A program made the position numbers and the translations under genes. Below, piece by piece: positions 33,460 through 62,080 of a stretch of DNA of 64,000 nt. Numbering within the stretch: position 1 is the stretch's first letter; each line of letters starts with the position of its first letter. Location of the stretch: positions 4,554 through 68,553 of the forward strand of contig JBEKGF010000023.1 of assembly GCA_050012935.1 (NCBI GenBank), read 5' to 3'. This DNA is from Edaphobacter sp. (GTDB lineage Bacteria; Acidobacteriota; Terriglobia; Terriglobales; Acidobacteriaceae). The notes beneath the pieces are model-generated. The model searched no databases, had not been told where the DNA came from, and saw nothing but the letters and a program-made list of their open reading frames with translations.

Positions 33460-33778
33460 GCACAAAAAAATCCCCAAAAACCTCAACAAAATCGCATGTC
33501 AAGCCCCCAAACCACCTAACTCACTCAAACCAAACCACATCCGCGTGGCGTTTTAGTTCGGCCCAGCAAGCTATACTTAATACAGAAAAGAAAAACAAAA
33601 AAGCCCCAGAGGAATCTATCCCCCTCCGGGGCTTTCCCTTTTGCAATGAGGACTTTACCGACAAGCAGAATCGAAAAAACCAATAGAATCAAGACTTTGC
33701 CAAACATCCCCGAAGGGAGGTCCAAACCTAAACCAAATCGAATGAAGACTTTGCACACATTCCGTAGGGTGGGTGCCC
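33460..33778 (+). repeat. Dispersed ~300-bp non-coding element, copy 1
   Basis: AAAATCGCATGTCAAGC (33488), CCTAA, TTAGTTC, GCTATACT, hairpin AAAAAAGCCCC...GGGGCTTT (33597-33638), three AAT[GC]A[AG]GACTTT[AG]C repeats (33645, 33687, 33741) and GGGTGGGTGCCC end. Confidence 0.8.
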
Positions 33779-33883
33779 ACAGTTATGTTATTTTTCCGCA
33801 AACCGAATTGACGTCTCCCGAGTCCAGGTCTATAAATAAGTCTCCAACCCTTGGGCCCCCCGGACAACTAAAGGAGAAAGACC

Positions 33884-34618
33884 ATGTGGCTAAACTGCCT
33901 GCGTTCTCTATCTGTGTCCGCACTTCTGATCGCTGCCTGTGCGGTTTCCACCATCCCAATCCACGCCGACACCATCGCCTGGGCAACCTGGACCTCTGGT
34001 ACATCCGGCAGTCCTGGCTCGGCCACGGGCACTATCGGCAGCATCACCGTCAACTATTCCGGCCAGACGAGCGGCCTGCTCACGGACTATCCCAGTTGGA
34101 CACCCACAACCACTTTCACTGGCGGCGTCGTTGGCAACGCCCCACCCGCCATCAACAACTCGGTCGGCCTCGAGGGCGGAGTCTCCTTCACCGAAACTAT
34201 CACCTTCTCGACAGTAGTCGCCGACCCCATCTTCGCCGTCTGGAGCCTCGGTGCGGCTGGCACCCCAGCCTCTTTTGACTTCTCCGCCAGCGAACCCTTC
34301 ACCGTTCAGGGAGGCGGACCGTCCGCCGAGTTCGGCGGCACCGCACTCACTATCAATGGCGAGGATGCAGAAGGGCAGGAAGGCAACGGAATCATCCAGT
34401 TCAACGGTGACTTCAGCTCCATCACCTTCACCACCCCGCAATTCGAAAACTTCTACGCCTTCACCGTAGGCGAGGACGCGACCCTCACTAGCCAGCTTCC
34501 TTCTGGACCACCTGCTCCACCCAGCAGTGTCCCTGAACCGGAAACAATCTCACTCCTGGTCCTCGGCCTCGCCGCGATACCCTTCGCTCGCAGGTCACTT
34601 TCGCGCCTCCGCACCTAG
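33884..34618 (+). CDS. PEP-CTERM sorting-domain protein
   Basis: Signal peptide, Ser/Thr/Gly-rich body, C-terminal VPEPETISLLVLGLAAIPFARR. Confidence 0.88.
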   Translation: MWLNCLRSLSVSALLIAACAVSTIPIHADTIAWATWTSGTSGSPGSATGTIGSITVNYSGQTSGLLTDYPSWTPTTTFTGGVVGNAPPAINNSVGLEGGVSFTETITFSTVVADPIFAVWSLGAAGTPASFDFSASEPFTVQGGGPSAEFGGTALTINGEDAEGQEGNGIIQFNGDFSSITFTTPQFENFYAFTVGEDATLTSQLPSGPPAPPSSVPEPETISLLVLGLAAIPFARRSLSRLRT

Positions 34619-34647
34619 CAACCTAAACCGCAAATACCTAAAAAACA

Positions 34648-34682
34648 ATGCCCCCTTCACGACATAATGGAGGGGGCGTTAT
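34648..34682. terminator. Hairpin terminator between convergent genes
   Basis: AATGCCCCCTTCA-cgacataa-TGGAGGGGGCGTT. Confidence 0.6.
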
Positions 34683-34878
34683 TTCGTTGCACGCGTGCCC
34701 ACATCTGAGACCACCACGACTCGGTGCCCCCCTCGACCTCGAATCCAGGACAAAGTAGCCGCCCTAGTCATCCCGAAGAAGTCAAGACCCACCCCGAAGA
34801 GGAAACGTTTCTTCGGTGGCCACTTCAAAGGGGAGACGAAAGCCGAAAGGTGCCTTATTCCAGAGAGTACCCTTTAGG

Positions 34879-36795
34879 CTACGGAGCCGTGACTGTCGAC
34901 CGTTCAACCCACGGCACGCGCCGATTCGGACTGACGTGGATCTCGTAGCCCCATCTTGCGAACACCGTTGGCATGTCGTGACGGATGTAACGCGCGAGCG
35001 GAAGACTATCGATACCGTCATCGGGCACACCCCAGACAGGCAGCATCGATGGCCTGGTGATCACGCATGCCGACGGATTCGCTTCGAGAACCTGAAGCGT
35101 CTTTTGTTGTTTTTCAAGCGGGATTCCCCTCATCCAGTTATCCTCGTTGAACCCATCCGGAGTTGGCACTTCGGACCAGAAGTTGAAACTTCCCATGCCA
35201 GGCATCGTGAAAAGAATCTGGCAGTTGGTTTGGGCGTCGTTGGATACCGCTCCGTAATACGTCTCAAGGTCAATGGGAAGATGCAACGATGCCGATCCAG
35301 CCAAAGAAGAAGCGGGAGTCGGATAATGCCGGTGCCAAATACCTTGTTTCAGCATCCCAGCGGTCAAAATGACCAAGACGATTCCCCCCAGGACGGATGC
35401 TGCGCTTATGCGAACATGCCAGCCTTTTGTTGATGGAAATGAAGCGAGTAGCCCACCGCCGCCATCGTGGATGCAGACGAACGCCCAAAGCAGAAAAGGT
35501 GCTACTCCACTATTTACCTGACTGCCAGCGACCGAATAAGCCTGCATGATTAGCATCACTGCAAGAGCCGCAATAAAAATCCGTGGAAAATACTCAACTG
35601 CTTTCCATCGGACTTCCTTTCTCGGAATCAACACCAACGGAAGAAGAGCATACAGTGGCGCAAAAGAGAACGTTCGCGGAGCCATATAAGCTATGGTCCG
35701 TTTGTCTAACAACACAATAACGAGCACCCCAGCCACGCATTTCAGTACATCAATCCATGCGGAGCGTGTCCTCCACCGCTCAGGGAACCAATACAGCCCA
35801 GCCACGCAGACGGCTAACACTATCCCAAACATAAGCATCTCTTTTGTTACGACAAAAGGGATGAAAAACACCGCAGGTTGGCGTGATGGGGCCAATATAA
35901 CACCATCCAGTACAGTGCGCAGCGACAATCCTTCCATCGTCGTTGCGAGAAGGGTCAGAATGGCAAACCCTATAGCGCCCAGCGCGATGTATCGAAAAGT
36001 TTTCATGCCCTCGGACGCATAAACGTTCGCGCGCATTCCGGCAAGCAGAGTGGAAGTGCCTGCCAGAATACTCATGAGGCAAAACCCCCATGCCCACGCA
36101 TTCAGGAAATGATGCATCAGTACGATTGGCCCTGCCACCACTGCTGCAAATAGCAGTTGGCTGCTCATATTTCGTAGGCGGCCCTCCGGAAACACGCACA
36201 CGGAAGCAATCACAGCAGCAGCCAGAAAAAAAATCCCTATATTGGTTTTTGTAAAAAAGAGTGCCGTTCCGACGGCACCTAGTGATAACAACGCAGCTGG
36301 GCTCGGATTCGCCGAAATACAACATCCCAGCATCTGCAGTACGATTACCACCTCCTGCGGGTGATTTGGTTCGAGAGATATAACCCTTTCCAACCACATC
36401 GTTGCTAAGCAGGCAGCCGATGCGAGCAGTGCATTCTTTGACAGCCTGTAGACAAAAAGTCCACCAAACACGGCCGACAGCACCCAGTAGATATAGGCTA
36501 CAAGCCGTCCAGAATCGAATGAAACTGGCAAACGGAACAATCCGAAGATGGCTTTTTGGAGCAGGAAATAAAATGGACCATACATACTGAATACTTGCGT
36601 ATAAAGATGTTCCCCCGCAAAGTAATGCTTCAGCGAAAGAAGAAGATAACTTTCATCATCGCTAATGAAATGTGGCGTCGCGAGAACGTATTTCCCGAAA
36701 CGAAGTGTCAATAAAAAAGTAGCTAAGACAATACTCGCGCGCCCAATCGAGAGCCACCTGCTCTTGAATGAGTCTTGTTGCTGAGGATTTTCCAT
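34879..36795 (-). CDS. Polytopic membrane protein, probable GT-C-fold glycosyltransferase
   Basis: ISDDESY after TM1, YGPFY, FFTKTNIG, many TM helices and a soluble C-terminal domain. AT-rich codons. Confidence 0.6.
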   Translation of the reverse strand: MENPQQQDSFKSRWLSIGRASIVLATFLLTLRFGKYVLATPHFISDDESYLLLSLKHYFAGEHLYTQVFSMYGPFYFLLQKAIFGLFRLPVSFDSGRLVAYIYWVLSAVFGGLFVYRLSKNALLASAACLATMWLERVISLEPNHPQEVVIVLQMLGCCISANPSPAALLSLGAVGTALFFTKTNIGIFFLAAAVIASVCVFPEGRLRNMSSQLLFAAVVAGPIVLMHHFLNAWAWGFCLMSILAGTSTLLAGMRANVYASEGMKTFRYIALGAIGFAILTLLATTMEGLSLRTVLDGVILAPSRQPAVFFIPFVVTKEMLMFGIVLAVCVAGLYWFPERWRTRSAWIDVLKCVAGVLVIVLLDKRTIAYMAPRTFSFAPLYALLPLVLIPRKEVRWKAVEYFPRIFIAALAVMLIMQAYSVAGSQVNSGVAPFLLWAFVCIHDGGGGLLASFPSTKGWHVRISAASVLGGIVLVILTAGMLKQGIWHRHYPTPASSLAGSASLHLPIDLETYYGAVSNDAQTNCQILFTMPGMGSFNFWSEVPTPDGFNEDNWMRGIPLEKQQKTLQVLEANPSACVITRPSMLPVWGVPDDGIDSLPLARYIRHDMPTVFARWGYEIHVSPNRRVPWVERSTVTAP

Positions 36796-36923
36796 AACAG
36801 TAGAATGTCGGTCCAACATAGAAATAAGAATAATTTAAGGAAATAATGGTCTCAAAAAGATTTGCTCAGCAAGTCTACATGGTCCGGGCGGATGGACCGC
36901 ATCTGACCTCATAACCACGACCC

Positions 36924-36991
36924 GGCGCCCCATCTTCGCGACAGTTTCATCGTCGCTAAGGTGGGCAATTTTAGCTGCAAACGAAAATCCA
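36924..36991 (+). repeat. REP-like element, family A
   Basis: GGCGCCCCATCTTCGCGAC...GTCGCTAAGGTGGGCAATTTT...CGAAAATCCA. Confidence 0.75.
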
Positions 36992-37055
36992 TGAGAAAAA
37001 GTTGTATTTTTAAATTCGCGTTTAAGCAAAACAGCCACTAGTTTTCCATCTAGAG

Positions 37056-37545
37056 TTGCTGGCTTATACCTTCGCAGACTATGCATGGGCAGAGCTCTTC
37101 AGCGCGTCTAGCAACAATCCCGTCGCACTGCTCTTCACCGGTCAGACCGAGCCCAGCGGTAGCATCGTTCCCGCCCAGGGTTTGTCTGCTTTTCCAGTTG
37201 TCGCCACGCTTAGCCCGTCATCAGTTCCAATCATTCCTGGCGGACCAGTTTGGTCGCCCCTGGGATCGTACTCCGGTGAATGCTTCGATACCGGTTGCGG
37301 TTACACCGGCTGGGTTCTATCCACCTACGACATCCCGACTGGCGGAAAACTACTACGTGGAGTTTGGCGCCACCAACTGGGTAGACGAGGCATTTGACAC
37401 AGGCTTGGCCATCGATGGCGTCACCGTCGGCGGCCAACCTATAAATCCTCCCGGTCCTACTCCGGAACCTTCGACCCTGGTTTTGTTCGGTTCCGGTCTT
37501 CTTGGGCTCGCTGGCATCGCAAAACGCAGACTGCTGTCGCGCTAA
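37056..37545 (+). pseudogene. 5'-truncated, frameshifted PEP-CTERM protein gene
   Basis: FADYAWAELF...CGYTGWVLSTYDIPTGG continues as NYYVEFG...PEPSTLVLFGSGLLGLAGIAKRR after an extra A in the run at 37346-37349. No signal peptide or SD. Confidence 0.8.
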
Positions 37546-37699
37546 AGCAGCAATACCACGGGGTAGATCTCCGCGACTGCGGTACTACCCCGTGTTGAAG
37601 TTTTAGCCCTGCCTTCCACATTCCCTCGGTCTCCGAGAACAGCTGCGGCAAGCGCACCGACGTCGCTCCGCCACGATCTCGCCCCAACCCCTCATAAGC

Positions 37700-38012
37700 A
37701 CACCAAAAAATCACTCACCAGAACCCCCAAAAAAGGCAAAAATGCGTGTCAAGCTCTCAAAACACCTAACTATCTCAAGCCAGCTATTGCACTTTAGTTA
37801 GTTCCAACCTGCTTAAATCAGAAAAGAAAATCGAAAAAGCCCCAGAGAAATTCATCTCCTTCGGGGCTTTTCCCTTTGAAGTGAATACTTTACGAACATA
37901 GTCGAATCAAAACCCACAGAATCACGGCTCTGCCAAACGCCAACAAACGGAAGTACAAGCCTAAAGCAAATAAAATGAGGGCTTTGCCTACATTTCGGCG
38001 GGGTGGGTATCC
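37700..38012 (+). repeat. Dispersed ~300-bp non-coding element, copy 2
   Basis: AAAATGCGTGTCAAGC (37739), CCTAA, TTAGTTC, hairpin AAAAAGCCCC...GGGGCTTTT (37834-37874), sub-repeats at about 37880, 37921 and 37974, and GGGGTGGGTATCC end. Confidence 0.8.
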
Positions 38013-38057
38013 GAAAAGTCTGTTTCAATTTCCCAGATTCAAGTTAAACTCCCACCC

Positions 38058-38498
38058 ATGAAGCCACTCCTTCTCACTTTATTGGCCGCGACACTAACTC
38101 CCGCACTCGCCCAACCCCCTGCTCCAGATCCCATCGGCACCGAGCCCGACTTCATCTTCATCCAGGAGCTTAATCTCTGGAGAACCCTGCAGAACCACGA
38201 TCTCGCCACCTTCCACGCTCTCCTCCTCCCCGACTTTCTTTACATACAAAAGGCTATCCAGACCCGCGAGCAGATCATGGACAATCTCAACACCTGCACC
38301 CTCTCCAACTTCAAGTTCCGCAACCATCAGCTCCGCATGATCACGCCCGACATCGCCATCCTCGCCTACACCGCATCCAGCGAAACCACTTGCGGCGAAT
38401 CCCACCTCGCCGGCAGCTACAACGCCACTACCACCTGGGTCCGTCGCGACGGCAAATGGCTCGTCCAAATCCACACCGAAGTCCCCATCAAACCCTGA
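38058..38498 (+). CDS. Secreted NTF2-like (DUF4440-type) protein, paralog 1
   Basis: Signal peptide, ELNLW...DF...ITPDIAILAY...TWVRRDGKWLVQIHTE. Confidence 0.85.
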   Translation: MKPLLLTLLAATLTPALAQPPAPDPIGTEPDFIFIQELNLWRTLQNHDLATFHALLLPDFLYIQKAIQTREQIMDNLNTCTLSNFKFRNHQLRMITPDIAILAYTASSETTCGESHLAGSYNATTTWVRRDGKWLVQIHTEVPIKP

Positions 38499-38513
38499 AG
38501 CGCGAACGAATCT

Positions 38514-39164
38514 CTACTGCGGCGTCCCCGATCGCAAAGGCTGCAGGTCATGATCCAGCATCGTGGTCAGATCCTTTGCCAGATCGGCCACCTTCACCGC
38601 CGTCCCCGTCCCCAGCGATCCCTTCAACTCCACATCTGTCTTCTTCCCTGCAGACTCCGAGGTGCAAGGAGTCGCGGTCAGGTACGACGCCACAAACCCA
38701 ATCGTTCCCCGGCCCGTCGTCATCTTCTCGACCACCAGATGTAGCACTTTATCTGCCTTGGCTGCCGAGTCCACCAGATCCACCCCATTCATCGCGCCCA
38801 CGGCTTGTTTAATCGAAGTCGCAATGTCCCCTGTCGGATCGTCCCCGGTCACCGTTACCAGGACGTGTATTCTCCCCCCGGACATCGTCCCACTCGCCGG
38901 ACATGTCAGTATCTGCCTCCGCGGATCAATCCGTGCTGATGCCAGCAGCGCGACAAGCTGCATCTTCGTCAAGTTATTCAAACCCTCCGCCTTGAAATTC
39001 TGCTCCGCTACTCCCAGAGTCTGCTGCACCTCAGGCGACCACACTGCCATCCCAGGCTTCGCAGCACTCGCGCTCTTCGACTTTGCCGTCTGCCCGAACG
39101 CGGCATGCCCTGACACCACAACTGCGACCAGCGAAAAACCGCAAACCCGCCACATAAGTCCCAT
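38514..39164 (-). CDS. Secreted hypothetical protein
   Basis: Signal-peptide-like N-terminus and a coherent ORF. Start uncertain (39155-39191). Confidence 0.65.
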   Translation of the reverse strand: MGLMWRVCGFSLVAVVVSGHAAFGQTAKSKSASAAKPGMAVWSPEVQQTLGVAEQNFKAEGLNNLTKMQLVALLASARIDPRRQILTCPASGTMSGGRIHVLVTVTGDDPTGDIATSIKQAVGAMNGVDLVDSAAKADKVLHLVVEKMTTGRGTIGFVASYLTATPCTSESAGKKTDVELKGSLGTGTAVKVADLAKDLTTMLDHDLQPLRSGTPQ

Positions 39165-39234
39165 ATTTGCCACATGTCCTCCAGATGACATTGCAAAGCT
39201 ATCAGTAAGACGCTAAAACCAACCCCAAGCCTCC

Positions 39235-39320
39235 ACAGAAATGCCGATCAAGCCTGAACATCGCCTAACCCATTGCATAGAAAAAAGATATTCATAGCAA
39301 GTTGCGCGGGCTAATTCAGT
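39235..39320 (+). repeat. Degenerate partial copy (copy 5) of the ~300-bp element
   Basis: TCAAGC (39248)-N10-CCTAACCCATTG matches copy 4 (TCAAGC-N10-CCTAACCCATTG). Confidence 0.5.
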
Positions 39321-39358
39321 AGCCTTCGAATCCAGAAACCCGCGCTAACATAACAGCC

Positions 39359-39805
39359 ATGAGTCTCTTTCTCGTGGCAATCCTGGCCTTTGCCCTACCC
39401 TCTCAGGCCCAAAACGCAACTCCGTCTCCTGTAGAGATCGTAAATCTCGAGCAGAACCTATGGACCACCATGGCAGAAGGAAACTTCGCCACGGTCCGAA
39501 GCCTCTTCACCAAAGACTTCATCCAGGTAGACAACAAGATCCAGGCCGCAGACTCCTTACTAATTACTCTTAAGCACTGCAAGCTCGAGTCCTACGAACT
39601 CCGCGATCTCCAGGTCCGCATCCTTAGCCCGGACTCAGCCCTGACCGCCTATCACGTAGTCAATACCTTTAACTGCGGCACGGAAGATCACCCGCAGGTA
39701 AACAATTACGACAACAACTCCATCACCGTCTGGGTCCGCCAACCCAACACCGCTAAATGGCTGGTCCAGGCCCACACTGAGACTCCCACCGCCTTGGCAA
39801 AATAA
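39359..39805 (+). CDS. Secreted NTF2-like (DUF4440-type) protein, paralog 2
   Basis: Signal peptide, EQNLW...DF...LSPDSALTAY...VWVRQ...KWLVQAHTE. Two Cys are shared with paralog 1. Confidence 0.85.
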   Translation: MSLFLVAILAFALPSQAQNATPSPVEIVNLEQNLWTTMAEGNFATVRSLFTKDFIQVDNKIQAADSLLITLKHCKLESYELRDLQVRILSPDSALTAYHVVNTFNCGTEDHPQVNNYDNNSITVWVRQPNTAKWLVQAHTETPTALAK

Positions 39806-39848
39806 CAAAAACTCGCATAAAGTCGTTCCGTCACGCGAAAGAGGTCTC

Positions 39849-40715: not shown

Positions 40716-40717
40716 CC

Positions 40718-41221
40718 ATGACAACCAAGACAACCAAGACAATCAAGACCAAGGCAGTCAACACAGTCAACACAGTCAAACTCAATCCACGGGCCGATCA
40801 AGCCTCGCCAGGCGCCACCACTCTCTCCGACGATCAGATGCAGGCCTTGGCTCAATCCTTTCATGACATAGCCGTGGAAGTTGGCCAGGTGCGCCTCGAT
40901 GCCATCGCCGCCGGCAGCGCGCTCACTGATCCCCGCATCGTCCATCTGCAAGGCTATGTTTTCTCGTTGATGAACGTTGCCGCCGGCCTTGCGCTGCAGG
41001 ATGCAAACCTCACGCTCGACAACGCAGATCAGGCAGTCAATCAAATCTCTCTTGCCACCAAGGCCGCAGACAAAGCATTAGATAAGCTCAAGGATATTGA
41101 TAAGGCGGTCAATATTGCTTCGTCTGTGATCGTTCTCGCCGCAGCAATCACGACCAAAGATCCTGGCCAGATTATCTCAGCAGCCAAAGGGATCTTTACT
41201 GCATCGGGCTTCTCCTTGTAG
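40718..41221 (+). CDS. Hypothetical alpha-helical protein, probably co-transcribed with the lipoprotein
   Basis: Starts 2 bp after the upstream stop. Amphipathic helices and a hydrophobic C-terminal IASSVIVLAAAITT segment. Confidence 0.7.
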   Translation: MTTKTTKTIKTKAVNTVNTVKLNPRADQASPGATTLSDDQMQALAQSFHDIAVEVGQVRLDAIAAGSALTDPRIVHLQGYVFSLMNVAAGLALQDANLTLDNADQAVNQISLATKAADKALDKLKDIDKAVNIASSVIVLAAAITTKDPGQIISAAKGIFTASGFSL

Positions 41222-54013: not shown

Positions 54014-54107
54014 CGAGCCACCCGGTTCGTTCGGTTTTAAACTTGTCACACGCACCACATCTTTGAGGCTAAACGATTTTACGGAAGCGAGTTCGGAATT
54101 GAGCACT

Positions 54108-55514
54108 ATGAGCGCGGCGCAACGAGACCTGCTACCACTGGACGAACCGGCAGCCGAAACGGAAGCCACAGCCCCGGTTGCATTAAAGGAACCGTTCGCA
54201 CTCAAGGAACAGGTAGCCCAGCGTCTCGCCGCCCATCGCGCCCGCCGCACACAACGATCCGGCAGCGCCCAAACCCCCATCGCCAGCCCGGAGCCGGCGA
54301 ACTCGCGCACCTCCCGCATCGCCGCCGCAGTCGCCGAGCGCTATGCCAACTCGCAAAGCTACCGCGCCTTTCTCGCCGCCCAGGCCGAGACCGCCATCCG
54401 CGAAGCCCAGGCTGCAGCCGAGGTCGCAGCTCTCAATGCTCAGGCGGTCGCCGACGCCCAGTTCCAGCTCCTCGCGGAACTCGACCAATGGACTCTGACG
54501 CCTTCTGCACCGCCCCCAGCAACTCCTTCAGAGCATGCGCCGCGAATCACCGAAGCTCTACCCTCCACTCCATCTAACCCGTCGCAAGCCTACGGCCTTA
54601 CCGTCAGGCTCTACGACGAGGAGCAGGTTCCGCAAAAATATTTGCAACCGCACCTTACCTCAAACCGGGTCGACTCTCTGCTGTCGCTCGACGAAACCGA
54701 AGCGCTGGCCCTCGACGAAGAGATTGCCTTCCGCCAGTCGCCCGTCTTCGAGGACGCAGCGCCTCCCGTCGACCTCCCCGCCAACCTTATCGAGTTCCCC
54801 CGTCAGTTAGTAGCTCCGCGCAAAGCTCGTCCCCGGCTTGCCGAGGGCCCCTTGCGCGAAGAAGCCGATCACTCCGCACACCAGAACCCGGAGACGGCCC
54901 AACTCCGCATCTTCGAGGTCGAAGCCGCTCAGATCTCCACCGCTCCGGCCGTAGAATCCGTAGACCCCGAGTGGTCTTCCATCCTCCTCGCGGCCCATCC
55001 CCATCCCACCACCCCCCTCCTCGAGACTCCCGAAGCCCCCTTCCAGCCGGTCTTCTCCTCCCCGACCAAATCCCAGACCGCACCCTTCAATCTCCGCCTC
55101 ATGGCTGCCGTCGTCGACGGCTGCCTCATCGCCGCCGCTCTACTCGCCTTCATCGCTGTAGCTGCCCTCGCCGTCGGAAAATTCTCAGAAGGCCACGCAA
55201 CCATCGCAACCGAAATCCACATGACGCCGCAAGCCGCGTTGCTTGCAGCCACTGCGACATTGATCGTCCTCACCCTGCTCTACCAGCTCCTCTTCTTCAC
55301 TTTTTCAGAAGCGACTCCCGGCATGCGCTACGCCCGCATCGGTCTCTGCACCTTCTCCGACGACAACCCCACCCGCGCCGCCATACGCCGCCGCATCGTC
55401 GCCACCATCCTCGCCGCCTGCCCACTCGGCATAGGCTTCCTCTGGGCCTGGCTCGACGACGACGGCCTCGGCTGGCATGACCGCATCTCCCGCATGTATC
55501 AACGCAGCTACTAG
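54108..55514 (+). CDS. RDD family membrane protein with long N-terminal low-complexity region
   Basis: APFNLRLMAAVVD, TPGMR and HDRISR RDD motifs in the C-terminal third. Confidence 0.85.
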   Translation: MSAAQRDLLPLDEPAAETEATAPVALKEPFALKEQVAQRLAAHRARRTQRSGSAQTPIASPEPANSRTSRIAAAVAERYANSQSYRAFLAAQAETAIREAQAAAEVAALNAQAVADAQFQLLAELDQWTLTPSAPPPATPSEHAPRITEALPSTPSNPSQAYGLTVRLYDEEQVPQKYLQPHLTSNRVDSLLSLDETEALALDEEIAFRQSPVFEDAAPPVDLPANLIEFPRQLVAPRKARPRLAEGPLREEADHSAHQNPETAQLRIFEVEAAQISTAPAVESVDPEWSSILLAAHPHPTTPLLETPEAPFQPVFSSPTKSQTAPFNLRLMAAVVDGCLIAAALLAFIAVAALAVGKFSEGHATIATEIHMTPQAALLAATATLIVLTLLYQLLFFTFSEATPGMRYARIGLCTFSDDNPTRAAIRRRIVATILAACPLGIGFLWAWLDDDGLGWHDRISRMYQRSY

Positions 55515-55516
55515 AC

Positions 55517-55600
55517 TAGAGCTGTCTTGTAAACTAGAGCTGTCTTGTAACTAGAGCTGTCTTGTAACAAGAGCTGTCTTGCAGAGTAGAGCTTTCTTGC
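55517..55600 (+). repeat. Tandem array of five 17-18-bp units
   Basis: TAGAGCTGTCTTGTAAAC, TAGAGCTGTCTTGTAAC x2, AAGAGCTGTCTTGCAGAG and TAGAGCTTTCTTGC, with no spacers. Confidence 0.85.
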
Positions 55601-55617
55601 CGCGTCCTCTTCAGCTT

Positions 55618-55880
55618 TGTCATTCTGAGCGCAGCGAAGAACCCCCGCATTTGCATTTGCATTTGCAGTTGCATTTGCAGTTGTCGTTGCTCGTTGCTCG
55701 TTTTTTAGTTTGTCACCCTTCGCCGAAGGCGGAGGATCTGCCTTTGTCTCTGCCTTTTGTCTTTGTCGTTGCTTCCAGATGAGGGGGTTTCAGCCGCGTC
55801 TAGCCCGCAAGCGCCTCACCGCTCTGCCCTGAACAGCGTCGAAGGGCCGGAGCGAAGCCCGAAGGGGCAAAGCGACTGAT
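55618..55880 (+). repeat. Cluster of REP-like family B palindromes with (TTGCA[TG])n linker
   Basis: TGTCATTCTGAGCGCAGCGAAGAACCCCCGCATTT, TTGCAT/TTGCAG hexamers, TGTCACCCTTCGCCGAAGGCGGAGGATCTG and a further GC-rich hairpin. Confidence 0.7.
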
Positions 55881-55944
55881 TTATCGCTCTTGCATTCGCC
55901 GCAAACCACAGACAAGAAACACTTTACAAACCACCAAATTATCT

Positions 55945-56231
55945 TTTAGCGTTTTAAGCCCAAAAATCGCATGTCAAGCTCCGAAGCCACCTAAATCACT
56001 CAATCAAAACGAGTTATAATTGGCGTATTAGTTCCACTCAGCCAGCTATAATGGATATATAGAGTCAAGAAAAAGCCCCGGCACAGACTGGGGCTTCGCA
56101 TTTAAGCCAGTAAGTCGTTTGCTGGCACGAATTTAGCAATAAGTCCCGTGGTTGCACATATTTAGCAGGGATTGAACTAGCTATATCATTGCAGCCATTG
56201 AAGTTATCGCCGACAATAGGGGGGGTACCCC
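55945..56231 (+). repeat. Dispersed ~300-bp non-coding element, copy 3
   Basis: AAAATCGCATGTCAAGC (55963), CCTAA, TTGGCGTATTAGTTCC, GCTATAATGGATATATAGAGTCAAGAAAAAGCCCCGG hairpin, ...ATTTAGC sub-repeats and GGGGGGGTACCCC end. Confidence 0.82.
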
Positions 56232-56435
56232 TGGGGAGAAGAGAAAGGAAGCAGAGACCAAGGAACAACGGCCCTACCTTTGTCATTCAATCCGATCCGA
56301 GCCATAGGGGCGCGCACGAACCAGATCCGAGGCATCATTCGGTTTCGCGGATGTAAGCACACATCCACTGTCGCTGGAGTTCATCGCCATCCTCAATCAC
56401 ATCCAACGTGAGAGAGGATCGGAACCAGGAGCTGC

Positions 56436-56858
56436 CTACGCCAAAGGAGCCTGCGCCGCGGCCAGCAGATCCGCGCTCACTGCAGACGGGTCTCCAGCCT
56501 TGCCAGCAACCAACTCTGCCGTGGCTGCGGCAGTAACAAGAGCCCCTGTAGTCGGTGCGCGCTTCGTCTGAAAGCATTGCCGGCAAAGCACAGGCCGCCC
56601 CTGCGTCGGCTTGAACGGCACGGTCGTCTCGATACCGCACGCCGAACACTCCGTGCGTGTCTCCGTTCGCGAAAGACCGGCTGCGGCAGGCCCCGTACCG
56701 GCCTTCGCACTCGCGCCGGACCGCTTGGACTTGCATGGTTTGCAACGCTTCGGGTCATTCTTGAACTGTTTGTCGAAGAAGAAAAGTTGTTCCCCGGCGG
56801 TGAAGATGAACTCCCCGCCACAATCTGCACAGGTTAAGAGCCGATCCACAAATTCCAT
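56436..56858 (-). CDS. Double zinc-ribbon protein (zf-trcl plus CxxC-x17-CxxC type)
   Basis: DRLLTCADCGGEFIFTAGEQLFF...PKRCKPCK and CSACG...VPFKP...RPVLCRQCF. Confidence 0.9.
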   Translation of the reverse strand: MEFVDRLLTCADCGGEFIFTAGEQLFFFDKQFKNDPKRCKPCKSKRSGASAKAGTGPAAAGLSRTETRTECSACGIETTVPFKPTQGRPVLCRQCFQTKRAPTTGALVTAAATAELVAGKAGDPSAVSADLLAAAQAPLA

Positions 56859-57142
56859 ACCGCTTCTCCCGTTCGTTACGGAAAGGAAGAACATCCAGCG
56901 AGCCTGATCGTGGCAACACCCTGGAATTCAACCTTTGCTGATAATTGGTGCTTCCTGGTTTTTTGAGGGGGCCCGGAATGCTGAAACGCTTCGATTTGCC
57001 AGTCAATGTGGGCCGGTCGATTGGCTCTCTCTGCTGGTGCCAGTCAATGGCGGGAGTCCACTGCGCTGGCGGGTTCAAGAGGCCGCCTCGTCAGACTCTT
57101 CAAAAGAGGAGGAGACGGCCTGTCTTGGTTGCGGAGCAGCGA

Positions 57143-57340
57143 CTAATCCTGCTCCTTACGTACCTTCTTGCGATTGCGCTTACGTGCAAGCGCCTCTTTC
57201 ACGCGCTTCTTCTCACCTGGTTTCAGATAAAAAGAGTGGCGCTTAACTTCCTTGATGATGTCTTCCGTCTGCACCTTGCGCTTGAAGCGCCGCAGTGCGT
57301 TCTCAAGGGGTTCGCCTTCTTGTACTCGAACCTCTGCCAA
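57143..57340 (-). CDS. rpsU: 30S ribosomal protein bS21
   Basis: GEPLENALRRFKRKV...EVKRHSFYLKPGEKKR. TTG start with GGAGGTG SD. Confidence 0.95.
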   Translation of the reverse strand: MAEVRVQEGEPLENALRRFKRKVQTEDIIKEVKRHSFYLKPGEKKRVKEALARKRNRKKVRKEQD

Positions 57341-57495
57341 GAAAAATACACCTCCAAACATTCCCAATCGGGACACGTTCAGAATACGCCAGTTTGACTC
57401 GAAAATCACATAAAATCGTGGCTAATTTGACCTTGCAAAACTACAAAATCCCTCCATCAAAAACTCACCTTCCGCTTCAGCGTAAAATTCACTCT

Positions 57496-58017
57496 ATGAT
57501 CCGGTCCTATCAGGGAATAACTCCAGTCATTCCAACAAGCTGCTACATCGATCCCTCCGCGCAGATTATCGGCGACGTCATTCTGGGAGAACAGGCAAGT
57601 GTATGGATGAACGCTGTCATCCGCGGCGATGTTAACTCAATACGCATCGGCGCGAAGAGCAATGTGCAAGACTGTGCAGTCTTGCACGGCATGCGATACA
57701 TCTACCCAGTCATCGTTGGAGAGATGGTCACCATAGGCCACAACGCGACAGTGCACGGTTGCGTGTTGGAGGATGCTGTGCTCGTAGGCATTGGCGCCAC
57801 CATCCTCAACAATGCTCGCATCGGAGAAGGTTCCATCATCGCTGCCGGAGCCGTCATTCCGGAGCAGACCGTCATTCCGCCAAACTCGCTGGTCGCAGGC
57901 GTACCGGGCAAAGTCCGTCGCACGCTTGGTGAGGATGACAGGGCGATGATCCTCAAATACGCGCAGAACTACCTTGATTACACCGCGATCTACCTCAGGG
58001 AAGCCTCCGGATCATAA
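57496..58017 (+). CDS. Gamma carbonic anhydrase family (YrdA-like) protein
   Basis: Hexapeptide repeats, IRGDVNSIRIG, NVQDCAVLH, TIGHNATVHGC and AGVPGK. Confidence 0.92.
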   Translation: MIRSYQGITPVIPTSCYIDPSAQIIGDVILGEQASVWMNAVIRGDVNSIRIGAKSNVQDCAVLHGMRYIYPVIVGEMVTIGHNATVHGCVLEDAVLVGIGATILNNARIGEGSIIAAGAVIPEQTVIPPNSLVAGVPGKVRRTLGEDDRAMILKYAQNYLDYTAIYLREASGS

Positions 58018-58048
58018 ATCTTCACTCATCTTCGCTACACTGAAGGGA

Positions 58049-59341
58049 ATGGGCACTTTGAAAGCAGTACGCGGCACCCGGGATCTGCTTCCTCCAGAGA
58101 CCGCGCTTTGGAACCATGTTGAGGCCACGGCGCGCGCTGTCTTTGCGCGCTATGGATTTGGCGAGATCCGTACGCCGGTCTTTGAGGACACAACCTTATT
58201 TGCCAGGAGCGTTGGCGAGGAGACCGACATCGTCTCCAAGGAGATGTACACCTGGGAGGATCGCACGCGCGCTGACAGCGAGACGGGCCAGTCCCTCACT
58301 CTTCGACCGGAGAATACCGCCGGCGTTGTTCGCGCTTACATCGAACACAAGCTGGCAGACTCCGGAATGTTGCAGAAGCTGTTCTACATCGGGCCGCAGT
58401 TTCGCCGCGAGCGTCCGCAGCGCGGACGATACCGGCAGTTCTGGCAGATTGGGGCTGAGGTGCTCGGCCCTGCGTGGTCGGGGTCGGATAGTCCGCTGCG
58501 CGATGCTGAAGTCCTGGAGATGCTCGCTGCCTTCCTCAACGAGCTTGGCGTGAAGGGTTGGAAGCTGGAGATCAACTCCGTTGGTTCGTCGTCCGATCGG
58601 CCCCGCTATGTTGCTGCGCTGCGTGAGGCTCTGGGTCCGGTCAAGGCGATGATGAGTCCCGACAATCAGCGGCGCGCCGAGACGAATCCGCTACGTGTGC
58701 TCGACAGCAAAGAGCCCTTCGATCAGGAGATCATCGACAACCTGCCGAAGATTGCGGACTTCCTCGATGATGCGAGCAAACTGCACTTCGCGCAGGTGCT
58801 CGGCGCGCTGGATGCTTGTGGCGTTGCTTATACGGTGAATCCGCGCCTGGTTCGTGGGCTGGATTACTACACGCGGACGACGTTCGAGTTCACGGTTCCT
58901 GATGGAAGCGGGTTGGGAACGCAGAACGCTCTGCTTGGCGGCGGACGATACGACGGATTGTCCGAGATGCTGGGTGGACCGAACGCTCCTGGAATCGGTT
59001 TTGCGATTGGCGAAGATCGCCTCATCCTCACCTTGCAAGCGCAGGCGGAAGCTCCTGCGGAGAGGAAGCTTGACGCGTTCGTTGCTCCGATGGGTATTGC
59101 GCAGAATGCCGCTGCGCTTGTGTTAGCGAAGGAGCTGCGCGATACAGGGCTTACGGTCGAACTCGGAGACGGAAGCTTCCGGTTGAAAAAGTCGTTTGAG
59201 GCGGCGGACAAGCTGGCTCGACGCATGGTGATTCTGGGTGAAGACGAGGTTTCGTCGGGTATTCTGACGGTTAAACACTTTAGCGCAGGCGAACAGACCA
59301 AGGTTCCTCGAACCGAACTTGCGAAGTTCCTGCGAGGTTGA
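58049..59341 (+). CDS. hisS: Histidine--tRNA ligase
   Basis: RGTRD, DIVSKEMY, LRPENTA, FRRERPQRGRYRQF, LVRGLDYY and GGGRYDGL. Confidence 0.97.
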   Translation: MGTLKAVRGTRDLLPPETALWNHVEATARAVFARYGFGEIRTPVFEDTTLFARSVGEETDIVSKEMYTWEDRTRADSETGQSLTLRPENTAGVVRAYIEHKLADSGMLQKLFYIGPQFRRERPQRGRYRQFWQIGAEVLGPAWSGSDSPLRDAEVLEMLAAFLNELGVKGWKLEINSVGSSSDRPRYVAALREALGPVKAMMSPDNQRRAETNPLRVLDSKEPFDQEIIDNLPKIADFLDDASKLHFAQVLGALDACGVAYTVNPRLVRGLDYYTRTTFEFTVPDGSGLGTQNALLGGGRYDGLSEMLGGPNAPGIGFAIGEDRLILTLQAQAEAPAERKLDAFVAPMGIAQNAAALVLAKELRDTGLTVELGDGSFRLKKSFEAADKLARRMVILGEDEVSSGILTVKHFSAGEQTKVPRTELAKFLRG

Positions 59342-59374
59342 GCTTTTTCTTCAGCGAGCGACGACGATTGGAAA

Positions 59375-61204
59375 GTGAATAGGATCATGTTGGATTTTTT
59401 AGGCAGTTTGCAGCGGACACATACTTGTGGCCAGCTTCGCGCAGAGCAGAATGGGCAACCGGTGGTCCTGATGGGCTGGGTCAACCGGCGGCGGGACCAT
59501 GGGAACCTGATCTTTCTTGATGTTCGGGACCGCACCGGCATTACTCAAGTGGTGCTCGATAAGGAAGTGTCCGGCGAGGCGCATGCGAAGGCCGAGACGG
59601 CGCGCTCCGAGTACGTTGTCGCGGTGAAGGGCAAGGTGCGGCGCCGCGGTGCTGGCCTTGAGAACCCCAACATGCCGACGGGACAGATTGAGGTTCTTGC
59701 CAGCGAGCTGCTGTTGCTGAACGAGGCGAAGACTCCGCCGTTTTCTCCTGCCGACGATGCGATTGCGAATGAGGAGGTGCGGCTGAAGTATCGCTACCTC
59801 GACCTGCGGCGGCCTGAGATGCAGTCGAACTTCGCGCTGCGCAGCCGTGTGGCGATGGCGATTCGGAACTACCTTGTTGGGGAAGGCTTCCTTGAGATTG
59901 AGACTCCTTTCATGACGAGGTCTACTCCCGAGGGCGCGCGCGATTACCTGGTGCCGAGCCGGGTTCATGCGGGCAGCTTCTATGCGCTGCCGCAGTCTCC
60001 ACAGATCTTCAAGCAGATCCTGATGATCTCGGGATTCGATCGCTACTTCCAAATTGCTCGCTGTTTCCGCGATGAGGACCTTCGTGCGGACCGTCAGCCG
60101 GAGTTTACCCAGATCGACCTGGAGATGACTTTTCCCCAGCAGGAGATGGTGTTTCGCGTGGTTGAAGGTTTTCTGACTGCGGCGTTTGCGACGGCTGGGA
60201 TTCAACTGACTGCTCCTTTCGTGCAGATGACCTACGACGATGCGATTAAGAACTACGGGATCGACAAGCCGGATATGCGGCTGCCGGCGATGGTTTCGTT
60301 GAGCGATGAGCTGCCGGCCGAGCTGCGTGAGTCGTTGAAGATTGAGAAGGAGCTGCCGGTGCTTGGGTTTGTGATTCCCAAGGCGGCCGGTTTGAGCGGC
60401 ACGCAGAAGCGTGGTCTCGTCGAGGAGATTCGTGCTTCCTTCGGCGAGTCGGGCCTCGACTTTCTGGATGTGGCGCGGTTGAAGACGAACGCTTCATTCG
60501 CTCCGTTGGCAGAGACGATTGAGAAGAAGTTGAGCGCTGCCGCTGACGATCTGATCATTGTCATTACTCCCAGGATTGGCACTCCTGCACAGTGGAACTA
60601 CGATCCGCAGTGGATCTACAAGCGGGTTGGCGCGCTGCGGCTGGAGCTGGCGAAGAAGTATGCGGACAAGCACAAGCTCTTCGAGCAGACCGGCACGGCG
60701 GCGGACTTCAAGTTTGCCTGGGTCACCGACTTTCCCATGTATGAGTGGGACGAGGAGACGAAGACGTGGAACGCTGCCCATCATCCGTTTACGTCGCCGC
60801 ACGAAGAGGACATCAAGTCGGGCAAGCTGACCAGCGACAAGGGCGCCGTTCGTGCGCTTGCGTATGACATCGTGCTGAACGGGACGGAGCTTGGTTCGGG
60901 CTCGATCCGCATTCACCGCAAGGATGTGCAGGCGGAGATCTTCCGTTCGCTGGGCATGTCGGATGAAGAGGCGAAGGAGCGGTTCGGGTTCTTCCTCGAT
61001 GCGCTGGAGTACGGCACGCCTCCGCATGGCGGAATTGCGCTGGGTCTGGACCGGATTGTGATGATTCTTGCTGGTGCGACGAGCCTCCGTGAGGTGATTG
61101 CGTTTCCGAAGACGGCGAAGGCGATCGACCTGATGGTCGATGCGCCTACACCGGTGAGCGATCACCAGATGCGGGAGCTGCATCTGAAGGTGAACCCGCG
61201 CTAG
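59375..61204 (+). CDS. aspS: Aspartate--tRNA ligase, probably non-discriminating (Asp/Asn)
   Basis: RRRDHG (His, typical of the non-discriminating type), RLKYRYLDLRRP, LPQSPQ, RDEDLRADRQPEFTQID and PPHGGIALGLDR. Confidence 0.97.
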   Translation: MNRIMLDFLGSLQRTHTCGQLRAEQNGQPVVLMGWVNRRRDHGNLIFLDVRDRTGITQVVLDKEVSGEAHAKAETARSEYVVAVKGKVRRRGAGLENPNMPTGQIEVLASELLLLNEAKTPPFSPADDAIANEEVRLKYRYLDLRRPEMQSNFALRSRVAMAIRNYLVGEGFLEIETPFMTRSTPEGARDYLVPSRVHAGSFYALPQSPQIFKQILMISGFDRYFQIARCFRDEDLRADRQPEFTQIDLEMTFPQQEMVFRVVEGFLTAAFATAGIQLTAPFVQMTYDDAIKNYGIDKPDMRLPAMVSLSDELPAELRESLKIEKELPVLGFVIPKAAGLSGTQKRGLVEEIRASFGESGLDFLDVARLKTNASFAPLAETIEKKLSAAADDLIIVITPRIGTPAQWNYDPQWIYKRVGALRLELAKKYADKHKLFEQTGTAADFKFAWVTDFPMYEWDEETKTWNAAHHPFTSPHEEDIKSGKLTSDKGAVRALAYDIVLNGTELGSGSIRIHRKDVQAEIFRSLGMSDEEAKERFGFFLDALEYGTPPHGGIALGLDRIVMILAGATSLREVIAFPKTAKAIDLMVDAPTPVSDHQMRELHLKVNPR

Positions 61205-61787
61205 CCGGTTCCGTGGGCTCTTCGCGGGATGGGATCACGGCTAAGGACCGGGTCTCTTCGACGACGCTTGTGACAGGCTCTGCGATCGGCGTTTCAGGTT
61301 CGGCTGGAGGCGATCGTTTTCGGGTGGGGGGAGTTGGCGGTTCTTGCGGTTCGGGGTCGAGCTCGAGGCGAGAGAAGACCTCGATGATGGCTCCTGGTTC
61401 TGCGAGATCGAGGCCGCTGGGCGAGGACTCGACGGCGCGGACGACCTCCGGTGTGCCGGGTGCATTGTTGAGGCGGGCTGCGTTGGAGGATGCGAGCTGA
61501 AGGCCGTAGAGCAGTACGGTCGCGCGTTTCGGGTCGATGCGATTGGTGGCGAGGGCATTGACGACGACTGAGATTGCGAGCTGGACGGACTCACGGTCTT
61601 CAAGAACGCAGAGCTCGAGGTCTCGCCCGTGGGTAAAGTAAGCTCGGGTCTCGTCGGTGGCGCGAAAGTTGGCGTGGCGGGCGTGAAGGCGGTTGTGAAA
61701 GTAGCACCACTGGCCTCCGGTGAGGGCGGGCGCGTGGCATTGCAGACCGTTGGTTTTGATGTGACGGCAGAGCGGATATTGTTCCAT
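61146..61787 (-). CDS. Hypothetical protein with N-terminal C-x9-C-x10-C-x2-H zinc-finger-like motif, directly downstream of element copy 4
   Basis: CRHIKTNGLQCHAPALTGGQWCYFH followed by a helical LEDRESVQLAIS...RIDPKRATVLLYGLQLASSN block. AGGAG SD at 61796-61800. Confidence 0.75.
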   Translation of the reverse strand: MEQYPLCRHIKTNGLQCHAPALTGGQWCYFHNRLHARHANFRATDETRAYFTHGRDLELCVLEDRESVQLAISVVVNALATNRIDPKRATVLLYGLQLASSNAARLNNAPGTPEVVRAVESSPSGLDLAEPGAIIEVFSRLELDPEPQEPPTPPTRKRSPPAEPETPIAEPVTSVVEETRSLAVIPSREEPTEPASAGSPSDAAPASGDRSPV

Positions 61788-61804
61788 GACGTTGTCTCCT
61801 TTGA

Positions 61805-62080
61805 GGGGCTCCCCCCCGGGGGGTGTTCCTTAAAAGTGCTGTGGTTGCAATGATTTAGCAAAATGGGTCGGGCTAAATTCCTGCAACCACAGGGGTTGTT
61901 GGTAAATTCGTCTTTCTAAACGGGAAAAGCCCCGGAATGAGCTTCCGGGGCTTTTTCTTGACTCTATATATCCAGTATAGCGGATTGGAGGGAACTAATA
62001 CGCCAAGTGTAACTTGATGTTGATCAATGGGTTAGGTGGTTTTGGGGCTTGACATGCGATTTTTGGGCTGAAAACGCAGA
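61805..62080 (-). repeat. Dispersed ~300-bp non-coding element, copy 4 (ORF-associated)
   Basis: Reverse complement reads AAAATCGCATGTCAAGC-N10-CCTAA...TTGGCGTATTAGTTCC...GCTATACTGGATATATAGAGTCAAGAAAAAGCCCCGG...CCGGGGCTTTT, then GTGGTTGCA...ATTTAGC repeats. Confidence 0.85.

Follow-up and report, generated by a model that had tools for sequence, protein, structure and literature searches.

A stretch of 64,000 nucleotides from Edaphobacter sp. (the window) had been described, in a sequence-only reading, as carrying five copies within 29 kb of a dispersed non-coding element, which raises the question of whether these look-alikes form a real family and, if so, what such an element could do. All five were recovered at the places given, as four full copies and one fragment, with the following features.

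33452..33779, forward strand: element copy 1 (sequence read; nhmmer match C23:37979-38330)
33488-33519, forward strand: copy 1, box 1
33546-33558, forward strand: copy 1, TGGCGTTTTAGTT
33570-33577, forward strand: copy 1, -10-like box GCTATACT
33600-33635, forward strand: copy 1, hairpin (arms from repeat search)
33645-33659, 33687-33701 and 33741-33755, forward strand: copy 1, units
33765-33779, forward strand: copy 1, G-rich end
37700-38012, forward strand: element copy 2 (sequence read; partial nhmmer match C23:42290-42450)
39226..39275, forward strand: element fragment (fuzzy pattern search; below the nhmmer threshold)
55932..56247, forward strand: element copy 3 (sequence read; nhmmer)
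55963 (start), forward strand: copy 3, box 1
56045-56052, forward strand: copy 3, GCTATAAT
56073-56096, forward strand: copy 3, hairpin with one G.T pair
61800..62107, reverse strand: element copy 4 (sequence read; nhmmer; repeat search)
62063-62032, reverse strand: copy 4, box 1
62005-61993, reverse strand: copy 4, TGGCGTATTAGTT
61981-61974, reverse strand: copy 4, GCTATACT
61955-61925, reverse strand: copy 4, hairpin
61920-61901, reverse strand: copy 4, unit 1
61890-61872 / 61859-61841, reverse strand: copy 4, inverted unit pair
61823-61805, reverse strand: copy 4, C-run/G-run

Identity and architecture of the element family

The look-alikes in the window are true members of an undescribed family of ~290-bp non-coding intergenic elements of soil Acidobacteriaceae. 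Within the window, the 17-mer AAAATCGCATGTCAAGC occurred four times with at most three mismatches against an expectation of 0.23, and none of 100 shuffles reached four. An nhmmer search of the 5.4-Mb genome returned 58 matches, 48 of them near full length, so that the earlier count, correct for its own 29 kb, fell far short of the about 50 family copies in the genome. Element lengths ranged from 236 to 426 bp, with two to three unit matches per copy. Several congeners carried dozens of copies per genome and many species of the genus were multi-copy, whereas no match was found in 80 other genera of the same family. Neither an ORF nor a transposase was found inside the element, and the comparison with Rfam that had been proposed gave no match at the gathering score over the window (Rfam 15), and only weak, hairpin-driven chance matches at an E-value threshold, bearing out the claim of a genuine undescribed modular family.

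Copies share a colinear block order, comprising box 1 (TGTCAAGC-N10-CCTAA), TGGCRTNTTAGTT, a -10-like gcTAnAnT box, a GC hairpin, two to three A/T-rich units of ~28 bp, and a C-run/G-run/GGTACC end, the 5' end being T-rich and the 3' end G-rich. The finer points of the sequence-only reading also held, including the exact 10-nt gap before CCTAA (all four full copies), the GCTATA[CA]T box (three of the four, copy 2 having GCTTAAAT instead), the hairpin, the G-rich end, and the three sub-repeats (spacings in copy 1, 42 and 54 bp). The same applied to the two subfamilies, with direct ACTTTGC units in copies 1 and 2 and a 19-21-bp inverted pair in copy 4. Copy 2 is diverged, with three mismatches in box 1 and a degenerate -10-like box, and the fragment consists of a degenerate box 1 only (ATGCCGATCAAGCC-N-CCTAACCCATTG) upstream of a second DUF4440 gene. 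Mean paralog identity was 79% in box 1 versus 55% in the linkers, in agreement with the proposed selection on blocks joined by free linkers, and in orthologous copies the blocks were retained while the flanks could not be aligned. Box 1 (~35 bp, highly conserved, TGTCAAGC-N10-CCTAAC) and the TGGCRTNTTAGTT box are most likely protein-binding sites.

Among known repeats, the BOX elements of Streptococcus pneumoniae (boxA-(boxB)n-boxC) are likewise dispersed, non-coding, modular, intergenic and free of a transposase, and have fixed modules at the ends and, between them, internal units of ~30-45 bp in varying number, compared with two to three units here. An effect on the expression of neighbouring genes is also suspected. 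The likeness is one of architecture, with no sequence homology. In BOX, however, modules A and C show partial complementarity and folding takes in the entire element, whereas here only one central hairpin is supported. To our knowledge, neither replication polarity nor a dedicated gene has been described for BOX. BIME-1 or RIP elements (REP-IHF site-REP) of enterobacteria also lie between genes and, like the present elements, are found preferentially at the 3' ends of genes and between convergent genes; they share with them a GC hairpin and IHF-consensus-like A/T motifs, both kinds being thought to act as protein-bound DNA and as RNA-end structures. Direct reading of the units gave matches to WATCAANNNNTTR, and we take some of the units, by our own comparison, to fit the published IHF consensus. 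A REP/BIME assignment was nevertheless rejected, as REPs are ~35-nt palindromes and the present element is ~290 bp long and for the most part not palindromic, and has a -10-like box, a single central hairpin and a conserved, asymmetric 5' block of 130 bp. The Correia elements (NEMIS/CREE) of Neisseria are similarly dispersed between genes, with promoter-like hexamers, an IHF-type site and stem-loops able to act on neighbouring transcripts, but differ by inverted ends of 26 bp and a duplicated TA, neither of which was seen here. A repeat search of three copies detected internal hairpins only, confirming the reported absence of terminal inverted repeats and speaking against a classical MITE of the Correia kind.

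The -10-like box and the central hairpin

Across 63 copies from five species, T1, A2 and A4 of the TAnAnT box were at least 90% conserved and T6 was invariant, and the "gc" prefix matched the tRNA promoters of this genome. No full -35/-10 promoter was called in any window copy, and no -35 was present at 16-18 nt, so that an activator may be required at the -10-like box, if this is a promoter at all. A sigma-54 promoter was rejected, since GG-N10-GC with TGGCAC/TTGCW gave isolated single matches at no recurrent position across 48 copies.

The hairpin was paired in 80% of cells, compared with 73.5% in shuffles (0 of 500 reaching the observed value) and at most 57% when slid. The covariation test suggested earlier supports it, with double changes in eight of nine pairs. 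Among 78 distinct hairpins, single mismatches were G.T in 18 cases and A.C in 3, opposite to the local mutation bias, from which the stem-loop is most simply read as acting in single-stranded nucleic acid of the forward strand, RNA being the simplest case. RNAalifold found this central hairpin and no conserved fold elsewhere, which, together with the Rfam result, speaks against the earlier suggestion of a structured RNA over the whole element. The accompanying suggestion of a portable promoter/terminator-like module is still a fair description. In the subfamily to which copies 1, 2 and 4 belong, the hairpin is followed by a T-run; in the main subfamily the forward strand lacks a U-tract after the hairpin, and a T-run lies on the reverse strand. 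Copy 1 also received a terminator-like call on the reverse strand.

These features could belong to a multi-copy small-RNA gene family in which each element is transcribed on its own. Regulators would act at the upstream boxes, TAnAnT would serve as the -10 and the variable parts would confer target specificity, the product being a 50-60-nt RNA up to the GC hairpin or a ~200-nt RNA up to the G-run. The conservation signature of the -10, the same-strand hairpin with its tolerated G.U pairs, the conserved first ~25 nt past the putative start (GGATATATAGATCGAAAAAC), the T-run in the subfamily of copies 1, 2 and 4, and the independence of the elements from neighbouring genes all agree with this explanation. 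We nevertheless regard it as improbable, given that the best-conserved block, box 1, would lie ~75 nt upstream of the putative start and outside the RNA, that the main subfamily lacks the U-tract, that a -35, an Rfam match and any conserved fold beyond the hairpin are missing, and that neither the conserved units nor the G/C end, both located past the hairpin, would be explained.

Replication-strand polarity and inheritance

The forward strand of the element lay on the locally C-rich (lagging) strand in 46 of 48 copies here (p=8e-12) and in 63 of 68 copies in relatives (p=8e-14), compared with 1959 of 3920 genes (50%) and 20 of 38 tRNAs as controls. In G012, a genome in a single contig, the 13 clear copies to the left of dnaA included 11 in plus orientation, and in the window, copy 3 sits where the GC skew switches sign. 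The polarity tracks replication, not gene direction. A small-RNA family would leave this 96% polarity unexplained, tRNA genes showing none. A forward promoter, if active, would direct transcription head-on to replication in 96% of copies, an unexpected arrangement. The genome-wide scale of the family, this near-absolute polarity and the zinc-finger gene link presented below had escaped the sequence-only reading.

Three to four other species carried copies 3 and 4 at orthologous positions, with ~70% identity (copy 3 in G021, G018 and G011; copy 4 in G018, G010 and G011, with a half copy in G021). Two further copies on other contigs were shared with G021, four elements in all occupying orthologous sites in both G000 and G021. 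Such shared positions in related species indicate that the copies are old and kept by selection, so that the non-autonomous mobile element once proposed has not been recently mobile. No clean empty site was found, element-less sites in G021 or G018 being rearranged; no conserved or duplicated flank indicative of a target-site duplication was seen by eye; and no target motif or mobilising enzyme was found.

Several of these observations would be accounted for by a selfish single-strand transposon, non-autonomous and akin to IS200/IS605-PATE or REPIN, that was mobilised in trans at the fork by a Y1 (HUH) transposase and is now decaying without host function. Inverted ends are absent and no target duplication was seen, family members are confined to one genus, Y1_Tnp genes occur in all but one of the 13 genomes considered in the genus, and both ends offer candidate subterminal stem-loops (GCGTTTT..AAAATCGC; TACCCC..GGGGTA). 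The orientation bias resembles that documented for IS200/IS605 relative to the replication fork (PMC5027513). As in REP/REPIN-RAYT and IS200/IS605-PATE systems, where terminal inverted repeats and target-site duplications are likewise not seen, a few-copy gene is permanently flanked by the repeat it presumably serves. In those systems, however, the Y1 partner carries or is flanked by the same ends, whereas none of the three Y1_Tnp genes of G000 (C11:22.8 kb, C47, C59) adjoins an element, and Y1 gene presence is unrelated to element abundance among the genomes of the genus. The linked gene encodes a CCCH zinc-finger protein with no recognisable HUH/Y1 domain, the element adjoins one side of it only, and this obligatory link would go unexplained. 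Furthermore, the 5' stem-loop is missing in the CAAAAACCTCAGC subfamily, the lagging template would expose the reverse strand although it is on the forward strand that selection maintains the only supported hairpin, and box 1 is at least as conserved among paralogs as coding DNA is between species, though the copies predate the species splits. We consider a transposon of this kind unlikely.

Link to a zinc-finger gene and possible roles

Copy 4 lies directly upstream of a small gene of the same strand.

61146..61787, reverse strand: CCCH zinc-finger ORF, 213 aa (C7, C17, C28 and H31 invariant in alignment)

The ORF starts 13 nt past the nhmmer end of the element (61800) and 17 nt past the C-run/G-run (61805). 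An element precedes the zinc-finger gene in all three paralogs here, in five of five loci in other assemblies and in five of five congeners, and the gene with its upstream element persists in congeners with few or no dispersed copies. The family is a modular, strand-polar, amplified upstream region of this small gene, and the element is best read as the native upstream control region of the zinc-finger gene family. The protein had no match in Pfam, NCBIfam, PHROG or PDB, and its AF2 model had a pLDDT of 57. It is a candidate cognate binder, and its locus a candidate "master" locus of the family; that it binds the element is purely our inference.

Extending this arrangement to all copies, as a shared regulon promoter or 5' leader controlling the following gene, appears very improbable. 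According to a crude home-made gene caller, the next downstream gene was on the same strand for 21 copies, often 5-50 nt past the G-rich end, which contains GGAGG; for the zinc-finger genes this arrangement always holds. For 26 copies, however, it was on the opposite strand, and in such convergent cases its stop codon abuts the G-rich end, by which this explanation is largely refuted. In addition, the proteins flanking the copies were mutually unrelated in a protein comparison, those downstream including PEP-CTERM, DUF4440 and others, and the polarity follows replication rather than genes.

Our preferred reading, to which we give somewhat less than an even chance, is that the control region of the zinc-finger gene gave rise to a promoter/hairpin cassette that is replication-polar and bound by protein. 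Each copy would be a self-contained, strand-polar intergenic cassette acting mainly as DNA, its prototype being the long upstream control region of the CCCH gene, in which a sigma-70-type -10 hexamer (gcTAnAnT) without a -35 would point at a GC-rich stem-loop and the C-run/G-run/GGTACC palindrome ends flush against the start or stop codon of the next gene. Orphan copies may have spread in the ancestor of part of the genus through a fork-linked process that acts in one orientation and leaves neither inverted ends nor target duplications, followed by vertical inheritance and purifying selection. Of this reading, the block architecture, the number and age of the copies, the selection on blocks, the strand polarity, the hairpin on the forward strand and the gene linkage are shown by the data, while promoter activity, binding by a protein and the way the copies spread are proposed. 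Their probable role would be that of binding platforms for the zinc-finger protein, with autoregulation at its own copy, and a second one probably promoter/stem-loop punctuation between genes.

The same linkage recalls Tus/Ter and RTP/Ter, in which strictly replication-polar sites are accompanied by a binding-protein gene directly behind one site; tus adjoins TerB and is autoregulated there. By analogy, the element could serve replication or segregation as a polar site and have its own, here predicted, binding protein, which would bind the boxes or units asymmetrically, letting forks or translocases pass in the normal direction and stopping those arriving the wrong way, and would autoregulate its gene from the preceding copy, as TerB does for tus. 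The near-absolute orientation against strand skew irrespective of gene direction, the element directly before every zinc-finger gene, the old, positionally stable copies under purifying selection, and the asymmetric arrays of direct repeats, which suit polar binding, are in line with such a site. Known Ter sites, however, are about 23-30 bp long, number about 10 per genome and surround the terminus, compared with ~50 modules of 290 bp over all contigs here. Moreover, the -10 box and RNA-type hairpin would have no role, the gene is kept even where a genome of the genus has few dispersed copies, and searches found no relation of the zinc-finger protein, with its low-scoring predicted fold, to Tus or RTP. 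We consider a polar site of this kind unlikely.

Beyond the favoured control-region cassette, there is a small chance that the element and the CCCH protein form a previously unrecognised, chromosome-wide, replication-polar DNA-protein system of Acidobacteria. This could take the form of a dispersed Ter-like trap, which would catch forks or translocases arriving from the wrong direction and have its gene autoregulated at its own site, or of a transcription-primed R-loop site, for which the promoter-to-G6AG6 layout recalls the mitochondrial LSP-CSBII primer module. Lying almost always on one replication strand and stemming from the upstream region of the zinc-finger gene, the element is a candidate, open to experimental test, for a DNA site that is linked to replication and served by a binding protein of its own.

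Copies and anatomy of the element

On re-reading the sequence, the four full copies and the fragment were recovered at the positions where a sequence-only reading had placed them, with the blocks as described there, and the left 17-mer of the element was found four times in the window against 0.23 occurrences expected. The features concerned are as follows:

33452..33779, + strand, element copy 1
37700..38012, + strand, element copy 2
39226..39275, + strand, element fragment with a degenerate box 1 only
55932..56247, + strand, element copy 3
61146..61787, − strand, zinc-finger gene (CCCH ORF, 213 aa), directly after copy 4
61800..62107, − strand, element copy 4

Also in agreement with that reading, the element copies had no terminal inverted repeats and contained internal hairpins only. 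The five members counted initially do exist, but the family is much larger, with about 50 copies genome-wide: a fuzzy search for box 1 found ~50 copies in the genome (5.36 Mb, 178 contigs), and an iterated nhmmer profile gave 58 matches, 48 of them covering most of the ~290-bp unit. The sole "long" copy (contig C36 of the same genome, 20116-22608) proved to be an ordinary copy into which 2.3 kb had inserted. The insertion contains a 296-aa ORF besides an IS1595/ISXO2-type transposase gene and has an 8-bp direct duplication, CATCGACG, on both flanks, so that an autonomous longer version of the element was rejected. Dispersed intergenic repeats are common; no matching description was found in the published literature on the element motif, Acidobacterial repeats or sRNAs.

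Profile alignment revealed that a T-rich lead is followed by box 1, (A)AAATCGCATGTCAAGCCCCAAAACCACCTAAC, the TGTCAAGC and CCTAA parts of which lie at fixed spacing, and then by a free linker, TGGCRTNTTAGTT, gcTAnAnT (13 nt beyond TGGCRTNTTAGTT), GGATATATAGATCGAAAAAC and a GC hairpin. The hairpin is followed by A/T-rich units of ~28 bp (TAAC-N3-TTTG-N7-A-N2-ATTTTGC), two or three per copy; most copies have them as direct repeats, and in the zinc-finger-linked subfamily some are inverted. A C-run/G-run/GGTACC terminus comes last. Paralogous copies were on average 79% identical in box 1, and the value fell to 64% for box 2 and the hairpin and to 53-56% for linkers and units.

The G-rich 3' end (e.g., window 61805-61823; contig C27 of the genome, 38860-38900) often reads G4-6 A G5-7, a motif similar to both a Shine-Dalgarno core and the G6AG7-8 tract of mitochondrial CSBII, and it is sometimes expanded to at least four G-runs (GGAGGGGGGAGGGGGGAGGGGGGAGGGGG), which makes it G-quadruplex-capable on an otherwise C-rich strand. 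In addition, a second dispersed repeat is frequent immediately 5' of the element (window 55800-55900; contigs C11, C29, C3, C27, C24 and C7 of the genome). It reads ...CCGCTCTGCCCTGAACACCGTCGAAGGGCCGG..GCGAAGCC.GAAGGGG..GCGACTGATTTAATTGCC, also occurs in a related form, GTCATTCTGAGCG.AGCGAAGAA, and may represent the REP-like counterpart of the Y1 transposase genes in this genome.

The -10-like hexamer and the hairpin

The -10-like hexamer showed the canonical conservation pattern, with conservation of 90% or more at T1, A2 and A4 and an invariant final T (63 copies, five species), and its "gc" prefix also occurs on the tRNA promoters of this genome, which are otherwise ordinary-looking (TTGACN-N17-TAnAcT). 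A simple promoter scanner called no -35/-10 pair, and hence no complete sigma-70 promoter, at the hexamer. Neither the units nor TGGCGT...TT qualified as a sigma-54 promoter. A Bacteroidetes-type -33/-7 promoter, whose spacing or motif does not match, was likewise rejected, and DnaA boxes were not enriched.

Since structure prediction from the MAFFT alignment yielded no structure, the hairpin was scored explicitly. Pairing reached 80% of cells compared with 73.5% in shuffles (0/500 as high) and at most 57% with the partner slid, and both sides had changed in 8/9 pairs, indicating covariation; selection thus acts on the structure of the hairpin. In a set of 78 distinct hairpins, G.T accounted for 18 single mismatches on the forward strand (running from box 1 to the G-rich end) and A.C for 3. 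This strand being rich in C and A, mutation bias would be expected to produce A.C, and the excess of G.T therefore places use of the stem, whether as RNA or as single-stranded DNA, on the forward strand. In the main subfamily it is the reverse strand that carries the T-run of the hairpin, which counts against a simple forward terminator.

The earlier suggestion of a structured RNA did not extend to the whole element, as RNAalifold on 42-116 copies detected no conserved fold beyond the central hairpin on either strand, a possible AUGUCA/UGGCRU helix lacked compensatory support, and the Rfam comparison matched no known RNA family. A small hidden ORF or type I toxin was rejected, no ORF being found at a conserved position; a 7-codon ATGTCAAGC...TAA frame had no SD, and its stop was not retained in all copies. 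An sRNA family would account for the -10 box and the hairpin but would leave the upstream conservation, the polarity and the units without explanation; it is considered unlikely.

Genomic context, the zinc-finger gene and the age of the copies

According to a home-made codon-usage gene caller, which is crude and gives approximate counts, the upstream gene was on the element's strand in ~35/48 copies, and the downstream gene was on the same strand in 21 copies and convergent in 26; the element is thus more than a 5' leader. Its G-rich end often lies 0-60 nt from the start or stop codon of the downstream gene. A tie to a paralogous family of neighbour genes was rejected, no link to neighbouring gene families being found. 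In the window, copy 2 and the fragment near 39250 lie upstream of the paralogous secreted DUF4440/SnoaL-like genes at 38058-38498 and 39359-39805, respectively.

In the alignment of the 213-aa ORF after copy 4, C7, C17, C28 and H31 were invariant, the helical core was conserved and the tail was acidic. The family comprised 470 proteins by word search and 4146 cluster representatives by profile search; the protein had no match in Pfam, NCBIfam, PHROGs or the PDB profile search, its long relatives had no Pfam domain, and its AlphaFold model was poor (pLDDT 57). In the source genome, an element lies directly 5' of the zinc-finger paralogs, in the same orientation, in 3/3 cases. The same arrangement of element 5' of gene was found at five loci in other assemblies, including Granulicella sp. 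L60, and in five congeners, among them G004, G016 and G017 with few or no dispersed copies. As the element precedes the gene in every one of these cases, it represents the native upstream region of the zinc-finger gene, and the dispersed copies are, judging from this context, probably orphan amplifications of that region.

Five other species of the genus carry multiple copies of the strict box-1 pattern, which was absent from 16 sister-family genomes. More diverged copies were detected by BLAST in 18/26 congeners; BLAST found no element in 80 other genera of the family, represented by one genome each. Copies 3 and 4 occupy orthologous positions in the related genomes G018, G011, G010 and G021 (copy 4 as a half in G021), with ~70% identity compared with 77-88% for the flanking genes. 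On one G021 contig, of 315 kb, the source genome shares four elements at orthologous sites and two or three are not shared, the latter always at rearranged rather than clean empty sites, and no clean empty site was found in G021 or G018. The copies are older than the species splits, yet box 1 matches coding DNA in its degree of conservation, which implies purifying selection or gene conversion for box 1. That the copies are old and appear to be selectively maintained is unusual for dispersed intergenic repeats.

At window 33441-38058 the gene order is unlike that of G018, where the orthologs of 32698-33441 and 38058-38498 adjoin without an element between them and the PEP-CTERM gene lies ~5 kb away. 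In the window, copies 1 and 2, in direct orientation, occupy the two junctions of this rearranged 4.6-kb block, so elements may have been the sites of, or partners in, recombination.

Strand polarity and candidate functions

GC skew in this genome is very strong and mosaic (mean |skew| 0.136 per 20 kb, up to 0.27); within the window it ranges from about -0.2 to +0.29 with a sign change near 57 kb, and AT skew is opposite over most of the window. With polarity scored from the flanks only (±5 kb), the forward strand of the element was the C-rich strand in 46/48 copies (p=8e-12), a bias that persisted to ±50 kb. The four window copies all conform, even copy 4 on the opposite strand beyond the skew switch. 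In relatives, 63/68 copies did so (p=8e-14), although the copies are partly orthologous, so that the p-values overstate independence. In contrast, genes (1959/3920, 50%) and tRNAs (20/38) showed no bias. In the single-contig genome G012, with dnaA at 1.43 Mb, 11/13 clear copies in the 1.4 Mb to the left are "+", which fits the forward strand of the element being the lagging strand; polarity by position was less clear in G002, consistent with a mosaic of inversions. That ~95% of copies follow the replication strand, although genes and tRNAs have no preference, is unusual, and the polarity is thus tied to replication history rather than to transcription of neighbours. The elements mark strand history and are thus usable as inversion markers in fragmented assemblies.

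Across window 54000-60000, GC skew changes near 57 kb from about -0.24 to +0.29, with a V-shaped cumulative minimum, inside a ~3-kb gene-poor stretch containing copy 3. No DnaA-box cluster was found at this switch, which may mark the breakpoint of an old inversion or be origin-like. On contig C8 of G021, syntenic with the window, 50-kb bins also shift, from ~0 to +0.15.

The most economical reading, and the one preferred here, is a putatively protein-bound DNA cassette that combines a promoter-like box with a stem-loop at the RNA level. The prototype cassette would control the zinc-finger gene, and orphan copies would have been laid down in a single orientation relative to the fork and then retained. 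The orientation may have been set by single-strand transposition of the IS200/IS605 type, for which such a bias has been shown (PMC5027513). Y1 transposase genes are indeed present in the genus, with three Y1_Tnp (IS200/RAYT-type) genes in the source genome (C11:22821-23147, C47:13941-14261, C59:16074-16340) and 1-5 each in 12/13 congeners checked; however, none of them adjoins a member of the element family, and the strand on which the hairpin is supported is the "wrong" one for this model. Polarity driven by function is the boldest reading that the evidence allows. By analogy with Ter, the zinc-finger protein could bind the cassette as a Ter-like site, its own gene lying behind one such site in the way that tus lies behind TerB; the element could also be a promoter-to-G-run R-loop module.

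The element needs masking or annotation in Acidobacteriaceae genomes. It is unusual that a repeat family can be traced to the control region belonging to a single unnamed family of small, widespread proteins, which in turn gains a concrete candidate job, namely that its members may bind their own repeats. In Acidobacteria, a major soil phylum for which we know of none of these systems, the family offers an entry point to replication termination, fork management or chromosome organisation.
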